This document shows, one piece after another, positions 25,489 through 63,813 of a DNA stretch of 64,000 nt; the first letter of the stretch is position 1, and each line of letters opens with the position of its first letter. Source of the DNA: Oscillospiraceae bacterium (GTDB lineage Bacteria > Bacillota > Clostridia > Saccharofermentanales > Saccharofermentanaceae). The DNA is taken from assembly GCA_902787975.1 (NCBI GenBank), contig CADAIP010000006.1:11193-75192 (forward strand). The letters are read 5' to 3'. The position numbers and the translations under genes are program-made. A model generated the notes under the pieces. The model saw only the letters and a program-made list of their open reading frames with translations, was not told where the DNA came from and ran no database searches.

Positions 25489-25582
25489 AAAAGATAATAT
25501 CTGCGCAACCGATGATGATGTTATCTTTGCATCAGGCACCTGACTTGTTGATAAACGCCTGATTGAAGACTAAAATCAGGTT

Positions 25583-26650
25583 ATGAAAGAGTTGATACCT
25601 GATAAAGAGCTGACTTTTGAGTCGCTTCAGAAAGATCCTGAGATCGCCGTCATAAGCGATGAGGTCAGTACGCGTGAAGAACTGCTCGAGACGTTTGCCA
25701 GGTATCTTAAGCTTTCAAGACCGAACAGAAGATATTCTGATTACTATTCCGTAAAGCTGTTCGGATGCAATGTCCCGAACATGTTTTTCAATATGAGTTA
25801 CCGTTTCAAGATTGATCCGCCTTTCCCTGTAAACGAGACATTCCTTGTAACAGAACCTGATCTTTACTACAACAAGCAGGCCTTCGATGAAGGTAAAGTA
25901 AACCTCTGTTTTGTGATCGGCTATTCCGGTTCAGGTAAGTCGCATCTTACAAGAGAATATGAAGGGAATGGAATCGAAAAAGTAGAACTTGATGATCTTG
26001 TATGTGCAAAAGATCACTTCACTTTGAAAGAACTTAAGAAGATGGGTGATCTTCTTTATTCGTTCTTCTCAGGAGAAGGTTCAAAATACTATATCTCGCG
26101 TAATGAACGCCCCGTATTTGCAAACCACGCTGAAGTTTTCGTTGAGTTCATTAAGTACGCACAGGAGTATGCCGAAGAACATAAGGATAAGAAATTCATA
26201 CTTGAAGGCATCTGGACATATCTGTTTTTTGACGATCCTTCCAAGTTCGATAAGTATGCCGTCTTCATGAAGGGCACATCTCTTGTCAAATCAAAATTCA
26301 GAAGGATGTTAAGAGAATCCGAGAACAGTATTTCGACTTCGCTGGACAGGTTTTTCGATTTTGGAATATATGCTGCCGATACCACTTTCCGCGATATCAA
26401 TGTCGATAAGTGGAGACGTCATTTCGAGAAGAAGAAGGCGACAGTGATGAAGCTCGAAGACAACAGATACACGCTTCTGGCACAGAATTTAATGAAGCGT
26501 GTGAATTCCATAAACGACTTCTATGTTCACGGAAACGCCGCTGGAATAAAGAGAATAATGAAGCGTACTTCAGAGAACAAGAGACTTGATAAGACTGAAA
26601 AGACCATCATTGCCGAAGAGTGCAAAAGAGCGCTTGCTGATCTCAAATAA
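25583..26650 (+). CDS. Hypothetical protein with a P-loop (nucleotide kinase-like)
   Basis: 'FVIGYSGSGKSHL', 'VELDD', 'FILEG'. Confidence 0.55.
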   Translation: MKELIPDKELTFESLQKDPEIAVISDEVSTREELLETFARYLKLSRPNRRYSDYYSVKLFGCNVPNMFFNMSYRFKIDPPFPVNETFLVTEPDLYYNKQAFDEGKVNLCFVIGYSGSGKSHLTREYEGNGIEKVELDDLVCAKDHFTLKELKKMGDLLYSFFSGEGSKYYISRNERPVFANHAEVFVEFIKYAQEYAEEHKDKKFILEGIWTYLFFDDPSKFDKYAVFMKGTSLVKSKFRRMLRESENSISTSLDRFFDFGIYAADTTFRDINVDKWRRHFEKKKATVMKLEDNRYTLLAQNLMKRVNSINDFYVHGNAAGIKRIMKRTSENKRLDKTEKTIIAEECKRALADLK

Positions 26651-31264: not shown

Positions 31265-31351
31265 TTTTTCGCTCGGTTCCCTTCTCATATAGTTAACATA
31301 TAATTAACTTAAAAAAGACAAAAGAATCTGACAAAGTGATAGAATTGTCTT

Positions 31352-34300
31352 ATGGCAGAGAAGCGGAACAGCAAGGGCAGGTTTTTAAAGGCCGTTCTGG
31401 GAATGGTCCTGTCATTGTGCGTGCTTATTACCGCCGCTCCCGTTATCGTCAATGCGGACGGTGAACCTCATGTTGTAGATCCTACGGGAAAGAACGAGGG
31501 CTACGCAGCATTCCTTTATGACAACACAACAGGTCTTCCCACATCGGAAGCTAATGCAATAGCTGAGACATCAGACGGCTTTATCTGGATCGGAAGCTAC
31601 GGCGGACTTATCAGATATGACGGCAACAATTTCGAGAGATATCAATCCAACACGGGAATCGCGAGCGTTGTAAGTCTCTTTGTAGACAGCACTGACAGAC
31701 TCTGGATAGGCACAAACGATAACGGTGCAGCCGTTATGGATAATATTGGAAATGTTACGATGTACGGAAAGCCTGAAGGTCTTCCTTCCGCTTCCGTCAG
31801 ATCATTTACCGAGGGTCCCGACGGAGATATCTATATTGCTACCACGCAGGGAATCTCTTATGTAAATGCTGATGGCAGCCTTAATAAGATCGATGATCCC
31901 AATGTCAACGGCGTATACGTAAAAAGCCTTGAATCAGGTGTTGACGGACTTATATATGCCCTTACGGTAGACGGCGATATCTTTACTATTAAGGACAGGG
32001 CTTTGGAAAGTTACCACAAGGCTGAAGATTTTGGCGTTGAGGATGTCCATGCATTGGCGACAGATCCCAACAATCCCGGTTATCTGTATCTTGGTACAAA
32101 GGGATCGAATGTCTGGTACGGCAGCTTTGAAGACGGCTTCCCCAGAGACCAGAGGATACATATTACTCCGCTTGAATACATTAACTCAATCAAATGTGAG
32201 GGCGACCGCATCTGGATCTGCGCCAACAATGGTGCGTGTGTATATAGAGACGAAGAAGTGGAGATGCTCAAAAATGTCCCCATGACATCGAACGTTGAAG
32301 GTATCATGGCAGATTTCCAGGGTAATCTCTGGTTCGTTTCTTCAAGACAGGGTGTCATGAAGATCGTTCCAAACCAGTTTACGGATGTTTTTGATGCCAA
32401 TGATCTCGACGAAACTGTTGTTAACACCACATGCTATTGGGATGATAAGATTTTTATTGGTGCGGATTCAGGACTTACTGTACTTGATAAAGAAGGCGTA
32501 GTTTCCAGCATTGAGATCAAAAATGCGCAGACCGCTGCAGGCGAGCATCTCGGATATCTTGAATTGATCTCGATGATGAAGGGTATAAGGATCAGATCCA
32601 TTATCAAAGACAGTAAGGACAGATTGTGGTTCTCTACCTATAGTGATTTTGGTCTTGTCAGGTTCGATCACGGTAACCTGGTCACTTTCGGTGTTGATGA
32701 CGGAATTCCTTCAAAAAGAGTTAGGGCTGTCTCGGAATGCAGTGACGGATCGTATATCGTTGCCTGTACAGGCGGTGTGGTTGTCATCAGAGACGATAAG
32801 GTGGAAACGATATATGATGCATCTTCCGGAATCACTAATATCGAGATCCTGACTGTTGCCGAAGGCTCTAACGGGGATATCCTTGCAGGAACGGATGGTG
32901 ATGGAATCTACGTTATAAGCCCTTCTGCAGAAGTAAGTCATCTTGATACATCAAACGGCCTTATGTCTGACGTTGTCCTGAGGATCAAGAAAGATGTCAG
33001 CCGCGATATCTATTGGATCGTAACGAGCAACTCGCTGGCGTATATGACGGCTGACTATAAGATAACTACTATCAACAACTTCCCGTATTCAAACAACTTC
33101 GATCTTTACGAGAATTCACTGGGAGAGATCTGGGTGTTAAGCAGCGATGGTATTTACGTTGATAAAGCTGAAAACCTTATTGCAAATGGCGAGCTGAGTC
33201 CTGTCTTCTATGGCATCGAAAACGGCCTTCCGGTAATAGCAACATCCAATTCCTACAGTTGTGTCACTGATGAAGGCGATCTATACATTGCCGGTACTAC
33301 CGGTGTTGCAAAAGTAAACATCGAAAAGGGCTTTGAGACTGTCGACAACATTAAGATGACCATTCCTTATATCGAGGCAGATGGTGTTAAGGTCTATCCT
33401 GATGCAAATGGCATATTTACAGTTGCTCATGACGTTAAGAAGATTACGATCCATCCTTTCATCTGCTCATATATGCTTATGAATCCTACCGTATCATATA
33501 ACCTTGAAGGTTTTGATAAGACAGTCATGAGTGTTCACAGAACTGACATGACGTTCATCGACTACACCAATCTCAAGGGCGGTACATATACTTTCAGCAT
33601 GACCATCTCCGATGCGATGGGACACGGAAGCAACAGTTACTCGATAACCATTGTTAAGCAGATGGCGATCTATGAATACACATGGTTCATTCTCTGCGTT
33701 TCTTTACTTGGTTTTGCCTTGATCGTACTCGTGGTCTATCTCTATGTCAGGAAAAAGACCAAAAAACTCTTAAAGAAACAGGAAGAGGACAAGATCCTCA
33801 TCAGAGAGATCGTTGAGGCATTTGCGAAGACGATCGACTTGAGAGACAAATACACGAACGGCCACTCACAAAGAGTTGCCGAATATACGGCAATGCTCAC
33901 CCGTGAACTCGGTTACGACGAAGAGACTACCGAGAAGTACTACAACATTGCTCTCCTCCACGATATCGGCAAGATCGGTGTTCCGGGAGAAGTATTGAAC
34001 AAGCCGGGTAAGCTTGATGACGAAGAGTACAAAACGATCCAGTCACATACGGTGCTCGGCTACAATGTTTTGAAAGATATCAGCATCATGCCCGAGCTCT
34101 CGGTCGGTGCGGAATCTCACCATGAGAGACCCGACGGCAAGGGCTATCCTAAAGGCCTCAAGGGAGACGAGATCCCGAGAGTTGCCCAGATAATCGGAGT
34201 CGCAGATGCTTTCGATGCGATGTATTCCAACCGTCCTTACAGAAAGAGAATGAATTTCGAGAAGGTCGTATCCATCATCAAGGACGCATCCGGAACGCAA

Positions 34301-43189: not shown

Positions 43190-43224
43190 TAACCTATTGA
43201 CACAGTAGGTTTATGTGGCATAAT
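43190..43224 (+). promoter_or_regulatory. Rrf2-like sulfur box over a sigmaA promoter
   Basis: TAACCTA-TTGACACAG-TAGGTTT; TTGACA-N16-(TGn)CATAAT. Confidence 0.8.
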
Positions 43225-43259
43225 AAGTCCATGCCATAGAAAATCAAGGAGGCGTAAAA

Positions 43260-43358
43260 ATGTTTAGGATCATGTGTTGTCGAATGCATTATACAAGGGC
43301 TGAATCGGCCATGGCGTTTGACTGCACGAATATGCGCCTTGTCGATGTACGATGTTGA
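43260..43358 (+). CDS. Cys/Met-rich leader peptide 1 (32 aa)
   Basis: AAGGAGG RBS; MFRIMCCRMHYTRAESAMAFDCTNMRLVDVRC*. Confidence 0.8.
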   Translation: MFRIMCCRMHYTRAESAMAFDCTNMRLVDVRC

Positions 43359-43384
43359 CTTCAATATAAAACATCAAACTCCAC

Positions 43385-43419
43385 AGCCCGGGAAACTCGC
43401 TCATCCCGGGCTTTTTTAT
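43385..43419 (+). terminator. Attenuator terminator of leader 1
   Basis: AGCCCGGGA-N10-TCCCGGGCT-TTTTTAT, 28 nt before the mccB-like ATG. Confidence 0.85.
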
Positions 43420-43446
43420 GCAAATTACGAAAAGAGGTAAATAAAC

Positions 43447-53356: not shown

Positions 53357-53902
53357 ATGATTTTATCTGACAGAACAATACTTAAGATGCTCGAAGAAAA
53401 AACACTTACTATCGAGCCTGTTACAAAAGAACAGATACAGCCTGCAAGTGTCGATATCAGATTAGGCCGCACTTTCAGTGTCGTTGACGATACACCTTCA
53501 AGCGTTATCACTCTCGAAAATGAGATCAAATATAAGACCATCACGACTGATACTTATCTCATCATGCCGGGTCAGTTTGTTCTTGCTACCACGATGGAAT
53601 ATTTCGAGCTTCCCGATAACCTCACCGCATTTGTGGAAGGCAGAAGTTCGCTCGGCAGAATGGGTCTTTTCATCCAGAATGCCGGATGGGTAGATCCCGG
53701 ATTTAAAGGTGAGATAACACTTGAACTTTATAACGCAAACAGATGCGCTATTGAACTTAAGGCGGGAAGAAGAGTAGGCCAGCTCGTTTTCGCTGAGATG
53801 GATGATCATGCTCTTAATCCTTATGACGGAAAGTACCAGGGCCAGAAGGGCGCTACGGGCTCTCGCGTCTTTAAAGATGCCGAAAACCCATTGACAAAAT
53901 AG
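53357..53902 (+). CDS. dcd: dCTP deaminase
   Basis: '[11 protein letters not shown]', '[10 protein letters not shown]', '[14 protein letters not shown]', 'YQGQ'. Confidence 0.95.
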
Positions 53903-53919
53903 GGAAATGATGTTAACTT
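53884..53919 (+). promoter_or_regulatory. Rrf2-like sulfur box and sigmaA promoter embedded in the dcd 3' end
   Basis: AAACCCA-TTGACAAAA-TAGGGAA; TTGACA-N17-(TGn)TAACTT. Confidence 0.6.
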
Positions 53920-53949
53920 TATCGCAATCATATTGAAGGAGGAAAGACA

Positions 53950-54030
53950 ATGAAACGCATTACGGCCACTATGATCTGTATGTGCTGTACTGAAGTCGTC
54001 CTCCCGCATATGACCGGAGTGATCTGTTAA
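53950..54030 (+). CDS. Cys/Met-rich leader peptide 2 (26 aa)
   Basis: AAGGAGG RBS; MKRITATMICMCCTEVVLPHMTGVIC*. Confidence 0.78.
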   Translation: MKRITATMICMCCTEVVLPHMTGVIC

Positions 54031-54069
54031 ACGCATGATTAAGATCACAAACTGAATAAAGGTTACTGT

Positions 54070-54103
54070 ACGGGAGTTCTGATGAATTCCCGTTATTGTT
54101 TTT
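54070..54103 (+). terminator. Attenuator terminator of leader 2
   Basis: ACGGGAGTTC-tgat-GAATTCCCGT-TATTGTTTTT. Confidence 0.75.
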
Positions 54104-54134
54104 GAAAAATATAGAATTAAAGGAGAATAAAAAC

Positions 54135-54698
54135 ATGAGCAGTAAAGACAATCATAAGAACAATTTGAAGAAGATAGCATACGCAGGTGTGCTTGCCGCA
54201 TTGGTATTCGTAGGTACCGAACTTCACATTCCGACAGCAATCGGACACATCAATTTAGGTGACCTCGTAATACTTGTAAGTTCGTATATCTTAGGACCAT
54301 TCGCATTCGTTCCCGCAGCTATCGGATCGACGCTTGCAGATCTTCTTGCAGGTTATCCCCAGTACGCAGTAGCAACATTCCTGATCAAGGGTATCATGGG
54401 ACTCGTTGCAGGACTTTTGCTTAAGAGAAACAGGGAAGGCAAGACTTCATTTTTCAGAAAGCTCTCCGTCTCTTTAGTTGCAGAGCTCATCATGATCGCA
54501 GGTTACTTCGCATTTGAATCACTGCCGTTTATGTATGGTGTTGAAGCAGCATTGGGCTCTGTAATCCCTAATGGTATCCAGGCAAGTGCTGCAATCGTAG
54601 GAGCAGTTCCGCTTATGTATGTGAAGCTTTTCGACAAATACCAGCTCTCGCAGAATAGCGAAATTCATAAGAATAAAGAAAAAACAGCAGTATCTTAA
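54135..54698 (+). CDS. ECF transporter S component (intact)
   Basis: 'LAALVFVGTELHIPTAIGHINLGD', 'AIGSTLADLLAGYPQY', 'IKGIMG'; AGGAG RBS. Confidence 0.88.
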   Translation: MSSKDNHKNNLKKIAYAGVLAALVFVGTELHIPTAIGHINLGDLVILVSSYILGPFAFVPAAIGSTLADLLAGYPQYAVATFLIKGIMGLVAGLLLKRNREGKTSFFRKLSVSLVAELIMIAGYFAFESLPFMYGVEAALGSVIPNGIQASAAIVGAVPLMYVKLFDKYQLSQNSEIHKNKEKTAVS

Positions 54699-60439: not shown

Positions 60440-60826
60440 ATGGAAAACCAAAACTATAATGCTCAGCAGCAGTATTATCAGCAGCCAAGCCAGCAGCAGT
60501 ATGTATATGTACAGCCCAACGATCCTGCTTATCTGGCTACAGCAAATGAGTTTCTTAAGAATGCGATCATTTCCTGCTGTATCTCAAGCCTTCCCATAGG
60601 AAGCATCATTGCTATCTTCATGGCTAAAAAGTACAGAAAGCAGCTTCTGGAATTTCTCGAGAAGGGCGGCCTTCACACACCCAGAATTAAGGTCAGCTCC
60701 GCACTTCTTCGTGGAGGAATGTATAGCGGAATCGGATTCACGATCGTCTGGGGCATTTATTTGTTCTTCGTGATATTCTGGTTCGTCGCTATGATATTCG
60801 CTCTGGCTACGGGTTTGAATTATTAA
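60440..60826 (+). CDS. Hypothetical membrane protein with a Gln/Tyr-rich N-terminus
   Basis: GGAGG RBS; 'QQQYYQQPSQQQY', then two hydrophobic segments. Confidence 0.7.
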   Translation: MENQNYNAQQQYYQQPSQQQYVYVQPNDPAYLATANEFLKNAIISCCISSLPIGSIIAIFMAKKYRKQLLEFLEKGGLHTPRIKVSSALLRGGMYSGIGFTIVWGIYLFFVIFWFVAMIFALATGLNY

Positions 60827-60847
60827 TGTTAAGGCAAAAAACAAATG

Positions 60848-60880
60848 AAAAAGAGGACTTCGAAATGAAGTCCTCTTTTT
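60848..60880. terminator. Bidirectional intrinsic terminator
   Basis: AAAAAGAGGACTTC-gaaat-GAAGTCCTCTTTTT. Confidence 0.9.
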
Positions 60881-60997
60881 ATTCCATCTGTTTGAAGCAA
60901 AATACATGGAATGTCAGGTGGAATTCCACCCGATTCCAACTTTTCTTCCACCTGATTGACCGTTTTTAGATGGAATAAAAGCTGGAACACTTAATAA

Positions 60998-62128
60998 TCA
61001 GATGTATGTTCCCAAATAAGCGAACTCGGTAGGCTCCGCATCAAGTTCGCAGAGAAGTGCGATAACTTCCTCGGAATATGCGGATGCTTCGAAGTCGAGA
61101 TAGAACATGAACTCGAAGTCTCTTCCTGCAATCGGTCGTGACTCGATCTTTGTGAGGTTCAATCCAAGTGATGAGAACTTAGCGAGTGTGTCTGCAAGTG
61201 CGCCCGGTGTGTGACCCAAAGCGAGCATTACGGAAGTCTTTGATGCGCCGGGGAAGATCATGAGTTCTTTTGTGATGCAGATGAATCTCGTGTAGTTATT
61301 GTCTGTATTCTGGATATCGTCCTTGATGGCTTCCAATCCGTAGAGCTGCTGGCAGTCAGCTGAGGAGATGGCAGCAACGTCTTTACGGCCTGAATCAGCA
61401 ACGCTCTTTGCTGCGACGGCTGTGTTCTCAACGATGTTGACCTTGATGTCCGGATGCTCTTTGAGGAACTTGCTGCACTGGCCGATGGCCTGGTTGTGCG
61501 AATATACTTCTCGGATGTCTTCAAATCTTGTGCCGTGGTTAGCGAGAAGCTTGTGGCTGATCCTCAACTTGTAATCTCTTACGATGTGGAATTTATGGCC
61601 GACCATGAGGTCGTAGACCTGGGTTACTGAGCCGAAAGAACTGTTTTCGATAGGGAGGATGCCGAACTTGCAAAGTCCGGATTCGACTGCCTGGAATACG
61701 CCGTCGAATGTTCTGAAGTACATGATGTTAGCGTGACGGAAGATCTTATCTGTGGCGATCTGTGAATAAGCGCCTTCGATTCCCTGGCAGGCAACCATGG
61801 GCGACTTGGGGAATTCCTTGGGAGTTGTCTCGAGAGCCTTGTGGATCTGGTCTGCAAGCTCTGTGCGTGTGCCGTACTCCATGTTGCGGTAGGAGTGGCT
61901 GAGATTGAACATTGTGGTGAAGAGCACGCGCTCGTAGTTGTCGATAAGTGAGTTGGATGTCTCAAGTCCAGCAAGGTAGCTTCGCTCGTAGCGTCTGCTC
62001 TTCAGTGCAATCTCGGATTTGGTCAGAGTCTCGTTTGCAGCCTTGCTGGCTTCCAAACGCTCTGCGAAAAGTTCCTTGATCTGCTCGTCGATCTCTTCAA
62101 TTCTCTTTCCGGCCTGTTTCTGTGTCAT
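60998..62128 (-). CDS. pheA: Prephenate dehydratase with ACT domain and a degenerate N-terminal chorismate mutase-like domain
   Basis: ATG 62128 behind GGAGGA; 'QGIEGAYS', 'PIENSSFGSV', 'SHNQAIGQC', 'NYTRF', 'LTKIESRP'. Confidence 0.9.
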   Translation of the reverse strand: MTQKQAGKRIEEIDEQIKELFAERLEASKAANETLTKSEIALKSRRYERSYLAGLETSNSLIDNYERVLFTTMFNLSHSYRNMEYGTRTELADQIHKALETTPKEFPKSPMVACQGIEGAYSQIATDKIFRHANIMYFRTFDGVFQAVESGLCKFGILPIENSSFGSVTQVYDLMVGHKFHIVRDYKLRISHKLLANHGTRFEDIREVYSHNQAIGQCSKFLKEHPDIKVNIVENTAVAAKSVADSGRKDVAAISSADCQQLYGLEAIKDDIQNTDNNYTRFICITKELMIFPGASKTSVMLALGHTPGALADTLAKFSSLGLNLTKIESRPIAGRDFEFMFYLDFEASAYSEEVIALLCELDAEPTEFAYLGTYI

Positions 62129-62144
62129 GTTCTTGTCCTCCGTC

Positions 62145-62284
62145 AAATTAAAAGCCCCGCAGTCTTGTTCACTGCGGGGCCCTATTATTCGTAAATCAAG
62201 TCGATATTTACATGCAGTGAACTATTAGCCCCTATTTCTAAAGGCAAAAAAGAACTCACGCCATGTAAATGCAAAATTAGTCAT
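62145..62284 (-). promoter_or_regulatory. pheL-type leader-peptide transcription attenuator
   Basis: 1:2 ATTTACATG/CATGTAAAT; 2:3 GTTCACTGC/GCAGTGAAC; 3:4 GCCCCGCAG/CTGCGGGGC plus TTTTAATTT. Confidence 0.85.
62225..62284 (-). CDS. pheL: Phe-rich leader peptide MTNFAFTWREFFFAFRNRG (19 aa)
   Basis: 6 Phe and 1 Trp codons; ATG 6 nt downstream of TATAAT (TTTACA-N16-TATAAT); no SD. Confidence 0.85.
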   Translation of the reverse strand: MTNFAFTWREFFFAFRNRG

Positions 62285-62466
62285 GTGGCAATTATATACC
62301 TTTGAACGTGTTTGTAAACACTTTTGTGTAAAACTGTTCGAAAACTTTTTCGGGCGGATGTTCTCTCATTGAAAAATCAGGCAAAAATATGATGTCCGTT
62401 AACACCAAGCCCCCTTAAACCGCTTGTAATATTAAAAGACCATAATTTATGCTACAATTTCTTCCT

Positions 62467-63813
62467 ATGAAGATCAGAGCGTTTACAGCAATACTTGTCT
62501 GCAAGGTCATAAGGGGCCTCGCAAAACTGATGGGCAGGGGCTCGAGTTTGCCCGGCAAATATGCCCTCAAGATATGTCCGGATATCCTCTCCGAATTAAA
62601 GCTTCCGGAGCTTTCTATTGCTGTCACCGGATCTAACGGCAAGACATCGACAGTAGAGATGATCGCGCACATTTTAAAGAGTAACGGCCTTAAGGTTGCG
62701 TATAACAAAGAAGGTTCCAATCAGATCGAGGGAGTTACGACTTTCCTTATCGGCGATTCCACTATGGGCGGAAAGGTCAAGAGCGATGTTGTGCTGCTCG
62801 AAGCAGATGAGAGATATGCAAGACGCGTATTCGGATATTTTCATCCCAAGTATTTTGTGATCAACAATCTTTATAGAGACCAGATGACGAGAAACGGTCA
62901 CCCGGAGTGGATCAGGAGCATTATCGGAGATGCGGTCTACGATGAAATGACACTCATATTGAATGCCGATGATCCTCTGGTCGCAAGCTTTGGCAAAGAC
63001 AGGGAAGGCACCATATATTTCGGTGCAGACAATCTTCCTTCTGACACCACGGTGCATGAGGGGATCTATAACGACGGCAAGTATTGTCCGATCTGCAAAC
63101 AGCCGATGGAGTATGAATATTACCACTATAACCACATCGGTAAGTTCAAGTGCACTTCATGCGGTTTTGAAAGACACGATACCGACCATGCTCTTACAGG
63201 TATTGGCGGATCAGAAGATCATGCATCCATCACCATTGACGGAACATATGAGATACCTGTTTTCTTTACGGGAATCTACCATTGCTACAACATTCTCGCG
63301 GCTTTCACGGCTTCAACCGTTGCAGGCATCGCGCCTTGGAAAGCGGCTGAATCTCTCGGAGGTTATATCTTAAAGTCAGGACGTATCTCCGATTTCACAT
63401 TGGGTAATGTTGAAGGCAGACTTCTTCTCTCAAAGCACGAGAATTCAGTATCCTATGACCGTTCGATCGATGTCGTCGTAAACGACAGCCGCAAGAAGAG
63501 TGTCATGATAATAGTTGATGCGATCAGCCGTAAGTATTACACTTCAGATTCAAGCTGGCTCTGGGACATCAATTTCGAGAAGTTTAAGGATGCTGATATT
63601 GATAAGATTATCCTTGCTGGACAGTACTGTGATGACCTCGCGGTGAGGTTTGATCTTGCAGGCATCGACAGTTCAAAAGTCGAGGTTTTCGAGAGCGTGC
63701 AGGGAGCGGCAGATTACTGCAAAGAAAAGCTTGATTCATTTCTTTACGTGATCACGTGTTTCTCTGACAAAGAGAAGATCCTTTCCATCGTTACAAGGAG
63801 GGAGATAGCATGA
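62467..63813 (+). CDS. murT: Lipid II isoglutaminyl synthase ligase subunit (Mur ligase plus DUF1727)
   Basis: 'GSSLPGK', 'VTGSNGKTST', 'LEADE', 'NLYRDQMTRNG', 'CPIC..C..C', 'WLWDINFE'. Confidence 0.85.
   Translation: MKIRAFTAILVCKVIRGLAKLMGRGSSLPGKYALKICPDILSELKLPELSIAVTGSNGKTSTVEMIAHILKSNGLKVAYNKEGSNQIEGVTTFLIGDSTMGGKVKSDVVLLEADERYARRVFGYFHPKYFVINNLYRDQMTRNGHPEWIRSIIGDAVYDEMTLILNADDPLVASFGKDREGTIYFGADNLPSDTTVHEGIYNDGKYCPICKQPMEYEYYHYNHIGKFKCTSCGFERHDTDHALTGIGGSEDHASITIDGTYEIPVFFTGIYHCYNILAAFTASTVAGIAPWKAAESLGGYILKSGRISDFTLGNVEGRLLLSKHENSVSYDRSIDVVVNDSRKKSVMIIVDAISRKYYTSDSSWLWDINFEKFKDADIDKIILAGQYCDDLAVRFDLAGIDSSKVEVFESVQGAADYCKEKLDSFLYVITCFSDKEKILSIVTRREIA

Follow-up and report, generated by a model that had tools for sequence, protein, structure and literature searches.

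A phenylalanine-rich, probably leaderless leader peptide forms a likely transcription attenuator upstream of pheA in a rumen Saccharofermentans-like Clostridium

We analysed a 64,000-nucleotide (nt) stretch of contig CADAIP010000006.1 (hereafter the window) from a rumen Saccharofermentans-like Clostridium, in which the prephenate dehydratase gene pheA, on the minus strand, is preceded on the same strand by a short open reading frame (ORF) rich in phenylalanine (Phe) codons and by an intrinsic terminator. This leader is likely a ribosome-mediated, leader-peptide transcription attenuator that ties pheA to the level of charged tRNA-Phe, with the peptide probably translated from a leaderless mRNA. 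The evidence comes from the sequence elements themselves, their conservation and covariation among orthologues, an enrichment of Phe codons specific to the ORF frame, a fixed spacing between the promoter and the ATG, and RNA that reads through the terminator into pheA.

Results

A −10 box at fixed distance from the leader start codon

The PheA protein of the window was found in identical form on many rumen and gut metagenome contigs, and the nearest species-level genomes were ruminant-derived metagenome-assembled genomes named Saccharofermentans sp. and “Ruminococcaceae bacterium”, the genus Saccharofermentans being placed within Clostridia. More distant orthologues were taken from species-representative genomes and from contigs on which a PheA relative of 60–80% identity is encoded. 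The resulting comparative set, to which all counts out of 17 refer, consisted of 17 divergent orthologous loci with distinct leaders and with PheA 60–99% identical, and about 70 pheA loci with a PheA identity of ≤55% (Oscillospiraceae, Faecousia, Limiplasma and others) served as outgroups.

A preliminary description of this DNA had placed on the minus strand a TTTACA-N16-TATAAT promoter, followed after 6 nt by the leader ATG at 62284 without a Shine-Dalgarno (SD) sequence, and each of these elements was confirmed at its position. The promoter matched the consensus at 11 of 12 positions and was the better of the two promoter-like sites found between 60800 and 62800, and none of the tetramers GGAG, GAGG and AGGA occurred within 20 nt upstream of the ATG at 62284. 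Among the orthologues, the −10 box was TATAAT in 16 loci and TAAAAT in one, the leader start codon was ATG in all 17, and the −10 box was separated from the ATG by 6 nt in 10 loci, by 7 nt in six and by 9 nt in one. In none of the 17 loci did the intervening C-rich sequence contain an SD-like tetramer, in contrast to pheA itself and to about 48 of the 56 ORFs of the window, at which SDs were recognisable. Upstream of the leader ATG we found neither an SD nor a conserved alternative start codon, and beyond the promoter elements the upstream DNA could not be aligned between distant orthologues. Because the gap of 6–7 nt was preserved in 16 of the 17 loci amid this unalignable DNA, transcription probably starts at the AUG. 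Judged by this arrangement, strict leaderlessness of the pheL-like mRNA, with a start at or within 1–2 bases of the A of ATG 62284, appears likely.

Phenylalanine codons kept in diverged peptides

The leader ORF of the window contains six Phe codons among its 19 (62275–62273, 62269–62267, 62254–62246 and 62242–62240) and ends at a TAA (62227–62225) that is directly followed by a second in-frame stop, TAG (62224–62222). The orthologous ORFs were 17–28 codons long and 26–36% Phe, and the sequences of their peptides were divergent, as exemplified by MNFWFTSFDFTFFALKKSE, MSRRFFTSFRFFTGFAFFFTNTILRFTA, MMNIWSTSFNFWFFAFT, MRNFWFTSFAFTFFALTKSE, MKHNVFTGFGFFAGFEFFFTKTKSGFTA and MITRSFTGFGFEFNFAFTYKVR. 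Summed over the 17 leaders, 118 Phe codons were found in the ORF frame; the two remaining frames, both broken by stops, contained 29 and 44. The background usage of Phe in 33 window genes was 4.5% of codons. Strain L006 carries a mutation in the first stop codon, and its ORF ends at the neighbouring TAG instead. Among near-identical strains the leader did not vary between a point about 50 nt upstream of the −35 hexamer and pheA, except for one C-to-U change that retains a G-U pair, and the sequence farther upstream diverged.

The codon UUU accounted for 81% of the Phe codons in the leaders versus 36% in the window genes, which favour UUC (64%); the leaders are related by descent, so the Fisher p-value for this comparison overstates their independence. 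Such a bias would be consistent with selection for sensor codons that are decoded slowly by wobble or, alternatively, with a U-rich structural constraint. At the nucleotide level a UUU-ACA pair (Phe-Thr) near codon 6 hardly varied, since it makes up the core of helix 1:2 described below.

Mutually exclusive helices and the position of the ribosome

The leader RNA contains four regions with alternative pairings (Table 1). As the preliminary description had proposed, helix 1:2 (62270–62262 with 62214–62206) and helix 2:3 (62222–62214 with 62175–62167) are exact 9-bp complements. The terminator and its U-tract were also present, although the GC-rich core, in which GCCCCGCAGT pairs with ACTGCGGGGC ahead of TTTTAATTT, measures 10 bp and not the 9 bp given earlier. 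The 145-nt leader folded with an energy of −49.3 kcal/mol compared with −29.6 ± 3.4 kcal/mol for dinucleotide shuffles (z = −5.8), none of 200 shuffles being as good. In the RNAalifold consensus of the 17-sequence alignment, the terminator displayed compensatory changes in 8 of its 11 pairs. The antiterminator (alignment columns 78–86 with 134–142) was paired in 97.4% of the cells of the 17 sequences and showed compensatory change in two pairs, and its score exceeded those of all 500 shuffles and of all register-shifted controls. Regions 2 and 3 were conserved in sequence as well as in pairing, which is expected because each of them pairs with two partners.

The helices are also placed consistently relative to the ORF. 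In all but one of the 17 loci the core of region 2 fell within a range from 7 nt upstream to 8 nt downstream of the stop codon, and when the nascent RNA was folded to just before region 3, region 2 paired with codons ~4–13 in 16 of 17. For the window, the energies of the isolated helices were about −15.9 (1:2), −16.3 (2:3) and −24.2 kcal/mol (3:4). With these energies the choice between the helices must be kinetic, as it is in E. coli trp. Equilibrium folds of the full leader with ribosome masks ignore the co-transcriptional order and were replaced by folds of transcripts cut before region 4. Of the 118 cases in which a 30-nt ribosome mask was centred on a Phe codon of such a truncated transcript, 109 gave the 2:3 antiterminator, versus 0 of 17 with the mask placed at the stop codon. 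In the window element the SD of pheA is left unsequestered.

The Phe attenuation put forward in the preliminary description is thus strongly supported by comparison, the Phe-rich ORF, the position of its stop, the antiterminator and the terminator all being kept in orthologues whose peptides have diverged.

Table 1. Coordinates of the pheA leader elements and of pheA in the window
Feature	Position	Strand	Basis or remark
−35 hexamer, TTTACA	62313..62318	−	Consensus scan; −35-like hexamer at 16–18-nt spacing in 17/17 orthologues
−10 hexamer, TATAAT	62291..62296	−	16-nt spacer after the −35 hexamer; 6 nt (tgccac) before the leader ATG, 62284–62282
Leader ORF (pheL-like), MTNFAFTWREFFFAFRNRG then stop, 19 codons	62225..62284	−	Phe-rich ORFs in 17/17 orthologues
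Region 1, 5′ strand of the anti-antiterminator; includes ATTTACATG and GTGAG, overlaps codons 5–11	62251..62270	−	Minimum free energy fold
Region 2 (AGTTCACTGCATGTAAAT), partner of region 1 or 3; starts right after the stop codon	62206..62223	−	
Region 3: GCAGTGAAC (62175–62167), antiterminator strand; GCCCCGCAGT (62180–62171), terminator 5′ arm	62167..62180	−	
Region 4: terminator 3′ arm ACTGCGGGGC (62163–62154); U-tract TTTTAATTT (62153–62145)	62145..62163	−	
SD of pheA, GGAGG	62137..62141	−	
pheA, prephenate dehydratase with C-terminal ACT domain, 376 aa	60998..62128	−	Pfam PDT 6.9e-58; ACT weak; NCBIfam prephenate dehydratase

Transcripts of the leader

Public metatranscriptome runs were used as assembled contigs only, which are prone to loss of 5′ ends and carry no strand information. 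Several contigs joined pheA, the terminator and part of the leader without a break; both leader RNA and RNA that reads through the terminator thus exist in vivo. In eight runs (X6–X10, X12, X13 and X25), the contigs that reached the leader ended at 62196–62265, 19–88 nt short of the ATG, no contig covered 62278–62477, and contigs of the divergent murT gene began at 62478–62516. Given the usual loss of 5′-terminal sequence, the contig ends fit a start of the leader RNA near 62284, the exact base of which we infer. Contig ends at 62285 and 62300 in runs X1–X4 were dropped as candidate 5′ ends since they coincide with branch points between strain variants.

Association with pheA

The element was strictly tied to pheA in the 17 loci, whose other neighbours differ. 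A Phe-rich short ORF ending 83–105 nt before pheA was present in every locus with at least 60% PheA identity, with one exception described below, and in none of the ~70 outgroup pheA loci. The pair of motifs formed by regions 2 and 3 was found nowhere but in pheA leaders when the window and 99 loci were searched, a scan of the window and of all loci detected no other leaderless upstream ORF (uORF) rich in an amino acid beyond the Phe leaders, and the consensus scan of 60800–62800 found no promoter-like site between the terminator and pheA.

The exception was the cultured isolate Ruminococcaceae bacterium YRB3002 (locus L089, FMTG01000037.1, 1170–1500; PheA 62% identical), in which pheA is still adjacent to murT but is preceded by neither a Phe leader nor a terminator nor a leaderless layout. 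The Phe leader has been lost or replaced within the clade, and for this reason YRB3002 can serve as a natural control.

In the PheA protein itself, residues 1–101 (61826–62128, minus strand) matched the type II chorismate mutase domain CM_2 below threshold (20.6 bits against a cut-off of 27), and CM_2 was clearly recognised in relatives with an identity of ≤57%. In the Saccharofermentans-like clade the mutase domain may have degenerated or diverged.

Discussion

The arrangement of the elements suggests the following sequence of events. Transcription would begin from the TTTACA/TATAAT promoter at or within 1–2 bases of the A of ATG 62284, and a ribosome would load directly onto the 5′-terminal AUG and translate the 19 codons including six for Phe, most of them the non-preferred UUU. 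With ample Phe-tRNA, the ribosome is predicted to proceed to the tandem stops, where its footprint would lie over region 2 (TTCACTGC, which begins 5 nt past the stop). With region 2 covered, regions 3 and 4 would pair into the 10-bp terminator followed by the U-tract, and transcription would end near 62147, ahead of pheA. The terminator would form as well if no ribosome had loaded and regions 1 and 2 had paired. With scarce Phe-tRNA, the ribosome would stall on Phe codons inside or beside region 1 and leave region 2 free, and the free GTTCACTGC would pair with the emerging GCAGTGAAC (about −16 kcal/mol), blocking the terminator and letting the polymerase enter pheA. The model relies on co-transcriptional kinetics because equilibrium folds of the full leader give the terminator in most stall states.

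Several observations weigh against this scheme or against its leaderless start. The 9-bp core of helix 1:2 was paired in only 75.8% of the cells of the gapless alignment, which is moderate support; inspected by eye, distant members seem to retain the helix with a bulge or other indels. When the full leader was folded to equilibrium under ribosome masks, most stall states ended in the terminator, and ribosome-free RNA cut before region 4 favoured 2:3 at equilibrium in 8 of the 17 loci. At locus L012 the stop codon precedes the region-2 core by 18 nt, beyond a normal ribosome footprint. As to the start, the boundary of the RNA was resolved to ~20–30 nt only, from contigs that lose their 5′ ends. 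A contig of depth 2.5 in a ninth run, X11, which is a poly(A) library, spanned 62183–62333 and thus crossed the promoter, and promoter sequence of several strains was present in runs X1–X4, which are labelled metatranscriptomic and are of doubtful RNA status; there it probably represents DNA or strain variants. Leaderless translation is, moreover, regarded as uncommon in Bacillota.

The X11 contig and the mixed runs X1–X4, both including sequence upstream of 62284, would suit a Phe attenuator that is not leaderless, in which transcription starts farther upstream, or ribosomes gain SD-independent access on a short 5′ untranslated region (UTR), and the −10-like box serves otherwise. The start position is derived from the layout and not fixed to the base, the 9-nt gap between the −10 box and the ATG at locus L017 would yield a leader of 2–3 nt, and the window clade carries a second TTTACA-like hexamer and the conserved block AAAGTTTTCGAACA farther upstream. 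We nevertheless consider such a start unlikely, since 16 of the 17 loci keep the −10 box 6–7 nt before the ATG despite unalignable upstream DNA, the upstream sequence offers no SD or conserved alternative start codon, contig coverage of 62278–62477 was zero in the eight RNA runs, and the start codon is invariably ATG, an AUG start being required for leaderless initiation. The leaderless translation claimed in the preliminary description is supported indirectly, by the −10/ATG spacing seen in 17 of 17 loci, the missing SD and the contigs that end inside the leader, with the start base as its inferred part. A regulator working independently of translation, in which the 5′ hairpin or the TTCACTGC/GCAGTGAA region is bound by a protein or small ligand that selects terminator or antiterminator and the ORF is incidental to U-rich sequence, would explain why regions 2 and 3 are conserved in sequence and not just in pairing, and it could draw on the trpB motif RF04312, which the element weakly resembles (32 bits, with the gathering score at 59). 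That score is far under the threshold, the conservation of regions 2 and 3 is expected from their dual pairing partners, the sequence of the 5′ hairpin is conserved no further than pairing demands, and all 17 loci retain the start codon, the frame, the stop position and the frame-specific Phe codons even as the peptides drift, all of which makes this explanation very improbable.

The ORF might instead encode a small hydrophobic protein with a function of its own, such as a membrane peptide, with the hairpin as its own terminator and with pheA expressed by leak-through or from its own promoter. The peptides are indeed hydrophobic, 17–28 aa long and followed by a strong terminator, but their composition is kept and their sequence is not, and the antiterminator, needless for a simple terminator, is conserved in its pairing and covaries. 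The linkage to pheA is strict in 17 loci with differing other neighbours, no promoter-like site was found between the terminator and pheA, and RNA contigs run continuously from the leader into pheA. A small-protein gene of this kind is hardly credible, even beside the riboregulator, and leader-peptide attenuation with a leaderless start accounts best for the combined observations.

Comparison with databases gave no established name for the element. At the gathering threshold, Rfam 15 returned no matches in the whole window, in 15 orthologues or in 20 outgroup loci, and the identities T-box, Phe_leader, Leu/phe leader and riboswitch were rejected on this ground. The Phe_leader (RF01859) and Leu/phe leader (RF01743) models were absent from 61900–62500 even at E ≤ 10, and the T-box model (RF00230) matched neither the window nor the orthologues nor the outgroup pheA loci. 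The trpB motif RF04312 scored 32.2 bits (E = 0.014 in a 601-nt search) and was rejected as a generic resemblance of a hairpin plus terminator; at threshold it had no match in the orthologues. This motif has been described as a riboswitch candidate or attenuator whose proposed antiterminator lies within the right shoulder of P1 (PMC11109978). It likewise consists of a hairpin followed by an intrinsic terminator before amino-acid genes of Firmicutes, and its match to the window rests mainly on the terminator. We found no earlier description of the pheA Phe-leader element in the literature.

The functional counterpart of the element is the enterobacterial pheL-pheA leader (RF01859), with which it shares the pheA target, the regulatory logic, a Phe-rich leader peptide, the 1:2, 2:3 and 3:4 helices and an intrinsic terminator. 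The E. coli PheL peptide contains a motif similar to the FFFAF of the window leader. The enterobacterial leader, however, differs in having a 5′ UTR and an SD where the present element, from another phylum (Bacillota, Clostridia), has its −10 box next to the ATG; the two show no detectable homology in sequence or structure, and the likeness is most likely convergent. T-boxes (RF00230) also sense tRNA charging and also decide between terminator and antiterminator before amino-acid genes of Firmicutes, but they bind the tRNA directly, whereas the pheA element is proposed to sense it by translating Phe codons.

Leaderless attenuation has been described in Actinobacteria. The leader peptide of C. 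glutamicum ilvBNC, and likewise those of trp, leuA and aroF, has no ribosome-binding site (RBS) or 5′ UTR (Morbach et al. 2000, as ref. 42 in PMC4046766; PMC11857589), and the Corynebacterium aroF leader contains Phe-Tyr-Phe (PMC4046766). These leaders show the same leaderless, ribosome-mediated transcription attenuation; they differ in being actinobacterial, where leaderless mRNAs are common, in serving other genes and amino acids, and in having no sequence relationship to the element described here. Mycobacterial polycysteine uORFs of the “Cys ribulon” are likewise leaderless, start with AUG and are enriched in one amino acid, and stalling on them remodels the downstream RNA structure (10.1101/834739). 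They act on translation by unmasking a downstream RBS, whereas the output of the element in Clostridia is a terminator with a U-tract. Within Firmicutes and Tenericutes, His leader peptides have been reported for the B. cereus group, C. difficile and Erysipelotrichales (PMC2965389, PMC9413887), and the uORFC-13-1 aroF motif of Acholeplasma senses Phe codons and includes an RBS in its consensus (PMC8632094). These leaders of low-GC Gram-positives resemble the present one in using a leader peptide and a terminator instead of a T-box. None of them controls pheA, and their genes, lineages and sequences differ from those of the pheA element. The background given in the preliminary description, that Bacillus-type Firmicutes typically use T-boxes, accordingly needs softening: leader peptides are described in some Firmicutes, leaderless ones in Actinobacteria, and the outgroup pheA loci lacked a T-box.

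The mechanism is therefore known, and what is new is the family, the lineage and the combination of pheA control in Clostridia with a conserved leaderless layout and a terminator output. We lean slightly towards a broader proposal, namely that the leader defines an undescribed RNA and peptide family (absent from Rfam 15) in which a 70S ribosome would load on the 5′-terminal AUG as it leaves the polymerase, coupling the first ribosome to transcription, within a wider and so far unrecognised leaderless usage in the Saccharofermentans lineage. B. subtilis promoters with a +1 A are favoured during amino-acid starvation. A leaderless AUG forces a +1 A, and by analogy the pheL promoter might additionally be favoured in starvation.

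The conceptual gain is modest, the mechanism being a textbook one. The element adds a well-supported case of leader-peptide attenuation in Clostridia, where control of amino-acid genes by a T-box, a riboswitch or a repressor is usually assumed, and shows, beyond Actinobacteria, a regulatory ORF that is phylogenetically conserved and apparently leaderless. It fills in a missing regulatory element for annotators of rumen genomes, and provides a compact natural system for studying the timing of leaderless 70S initiation relative to RNA polymerase. Leaderless genes may be under-counted in Bacillota.

Additional observations

Two further leaders in the window bear on the suggestion in the preliminary description that this lineage uses ribosome-mediated attenuation broadly. 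A Cys/Met-rich uORF, MFRIMCCRMHYTRAESAMAFDCTNMRLVDVRC, starts at 43260 (plus strand; region 43200–43446) behind a TTGACA/ATAAT-type promoter and the SD AAGGAGG, and is followed by a strong terminator at about 43385–43412 with a U-tract, directly before a gene (43447) for a pyridoxal phosphate-dependent enzyme of Cys/Met metabolism. It is probably one of the “Cys leaders” mentioned earlier, SD-led and not leaderless. A second Cys/Met-rich uORF, MKRITATMICMCCTEVVLPHMTGVIC, starts at 53950 (plus strand; region 53895–54135) with the SD GAAGGAGG and a terminator at 54070–54093 plus U-tract, and precedes genes for an S component of an energy-coupling factor transporter and for an NlpA/MetQ-like lipoprotein (55073). 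The two uORFs have an I-M-C-C / M-C-C core in common. The two uORFs with their terminators lend partial support to the suggestion of broader attenuation, and the SDs in front of both set them apart from the leaderless layout at pheA.

Near the pheL promoter, the block AAAGTTTTCGAACA, which contains a TTCGAA near-palindrome, lies at 62332–62357 (minus strand), some 15–25 nt upstream of the −35 hexamer. It was kept across the window clade (L001–L011, L018 and L021) despite divergence of its flanks, and may represent either an UP element or a site for protein binding common to the divergent pheL and murT promoters; on the plus strand it reads as a hairpin at 62334–62357.

The divergent murT itself (ATG 62467, plus strand; 62425–62470) looks leaderless, with TTAAAA-15-TACAAT followed after 8 nt (ttcttcct) by the ATG and with no SD. 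TATAAT or TACAAT was located 8–9 nt before the murT ATG in all clade members retaining the gene (L001–L011, L018 and L021), and murT of YRB3002 (L089) has GGAGG in place of the leaderless layout. Similar arrangements were seen on the plus strand at 25583 (25540–25585), where TTGATA-17-TAAAAT-6-ATG without an SD precedes a 355-aa protein with weak matches to P-loop ATPases, and at 31352 (31310–31355), where TAGAAT-6-ATG without an SD precedes a 1056-aa HD-domain protein with Reg_prop repeats. Taken by their layouts, murT and the genes at 25583 and 31352 suggest that leaderless initiation may be used more widely in the Saccharofermentans lineage.

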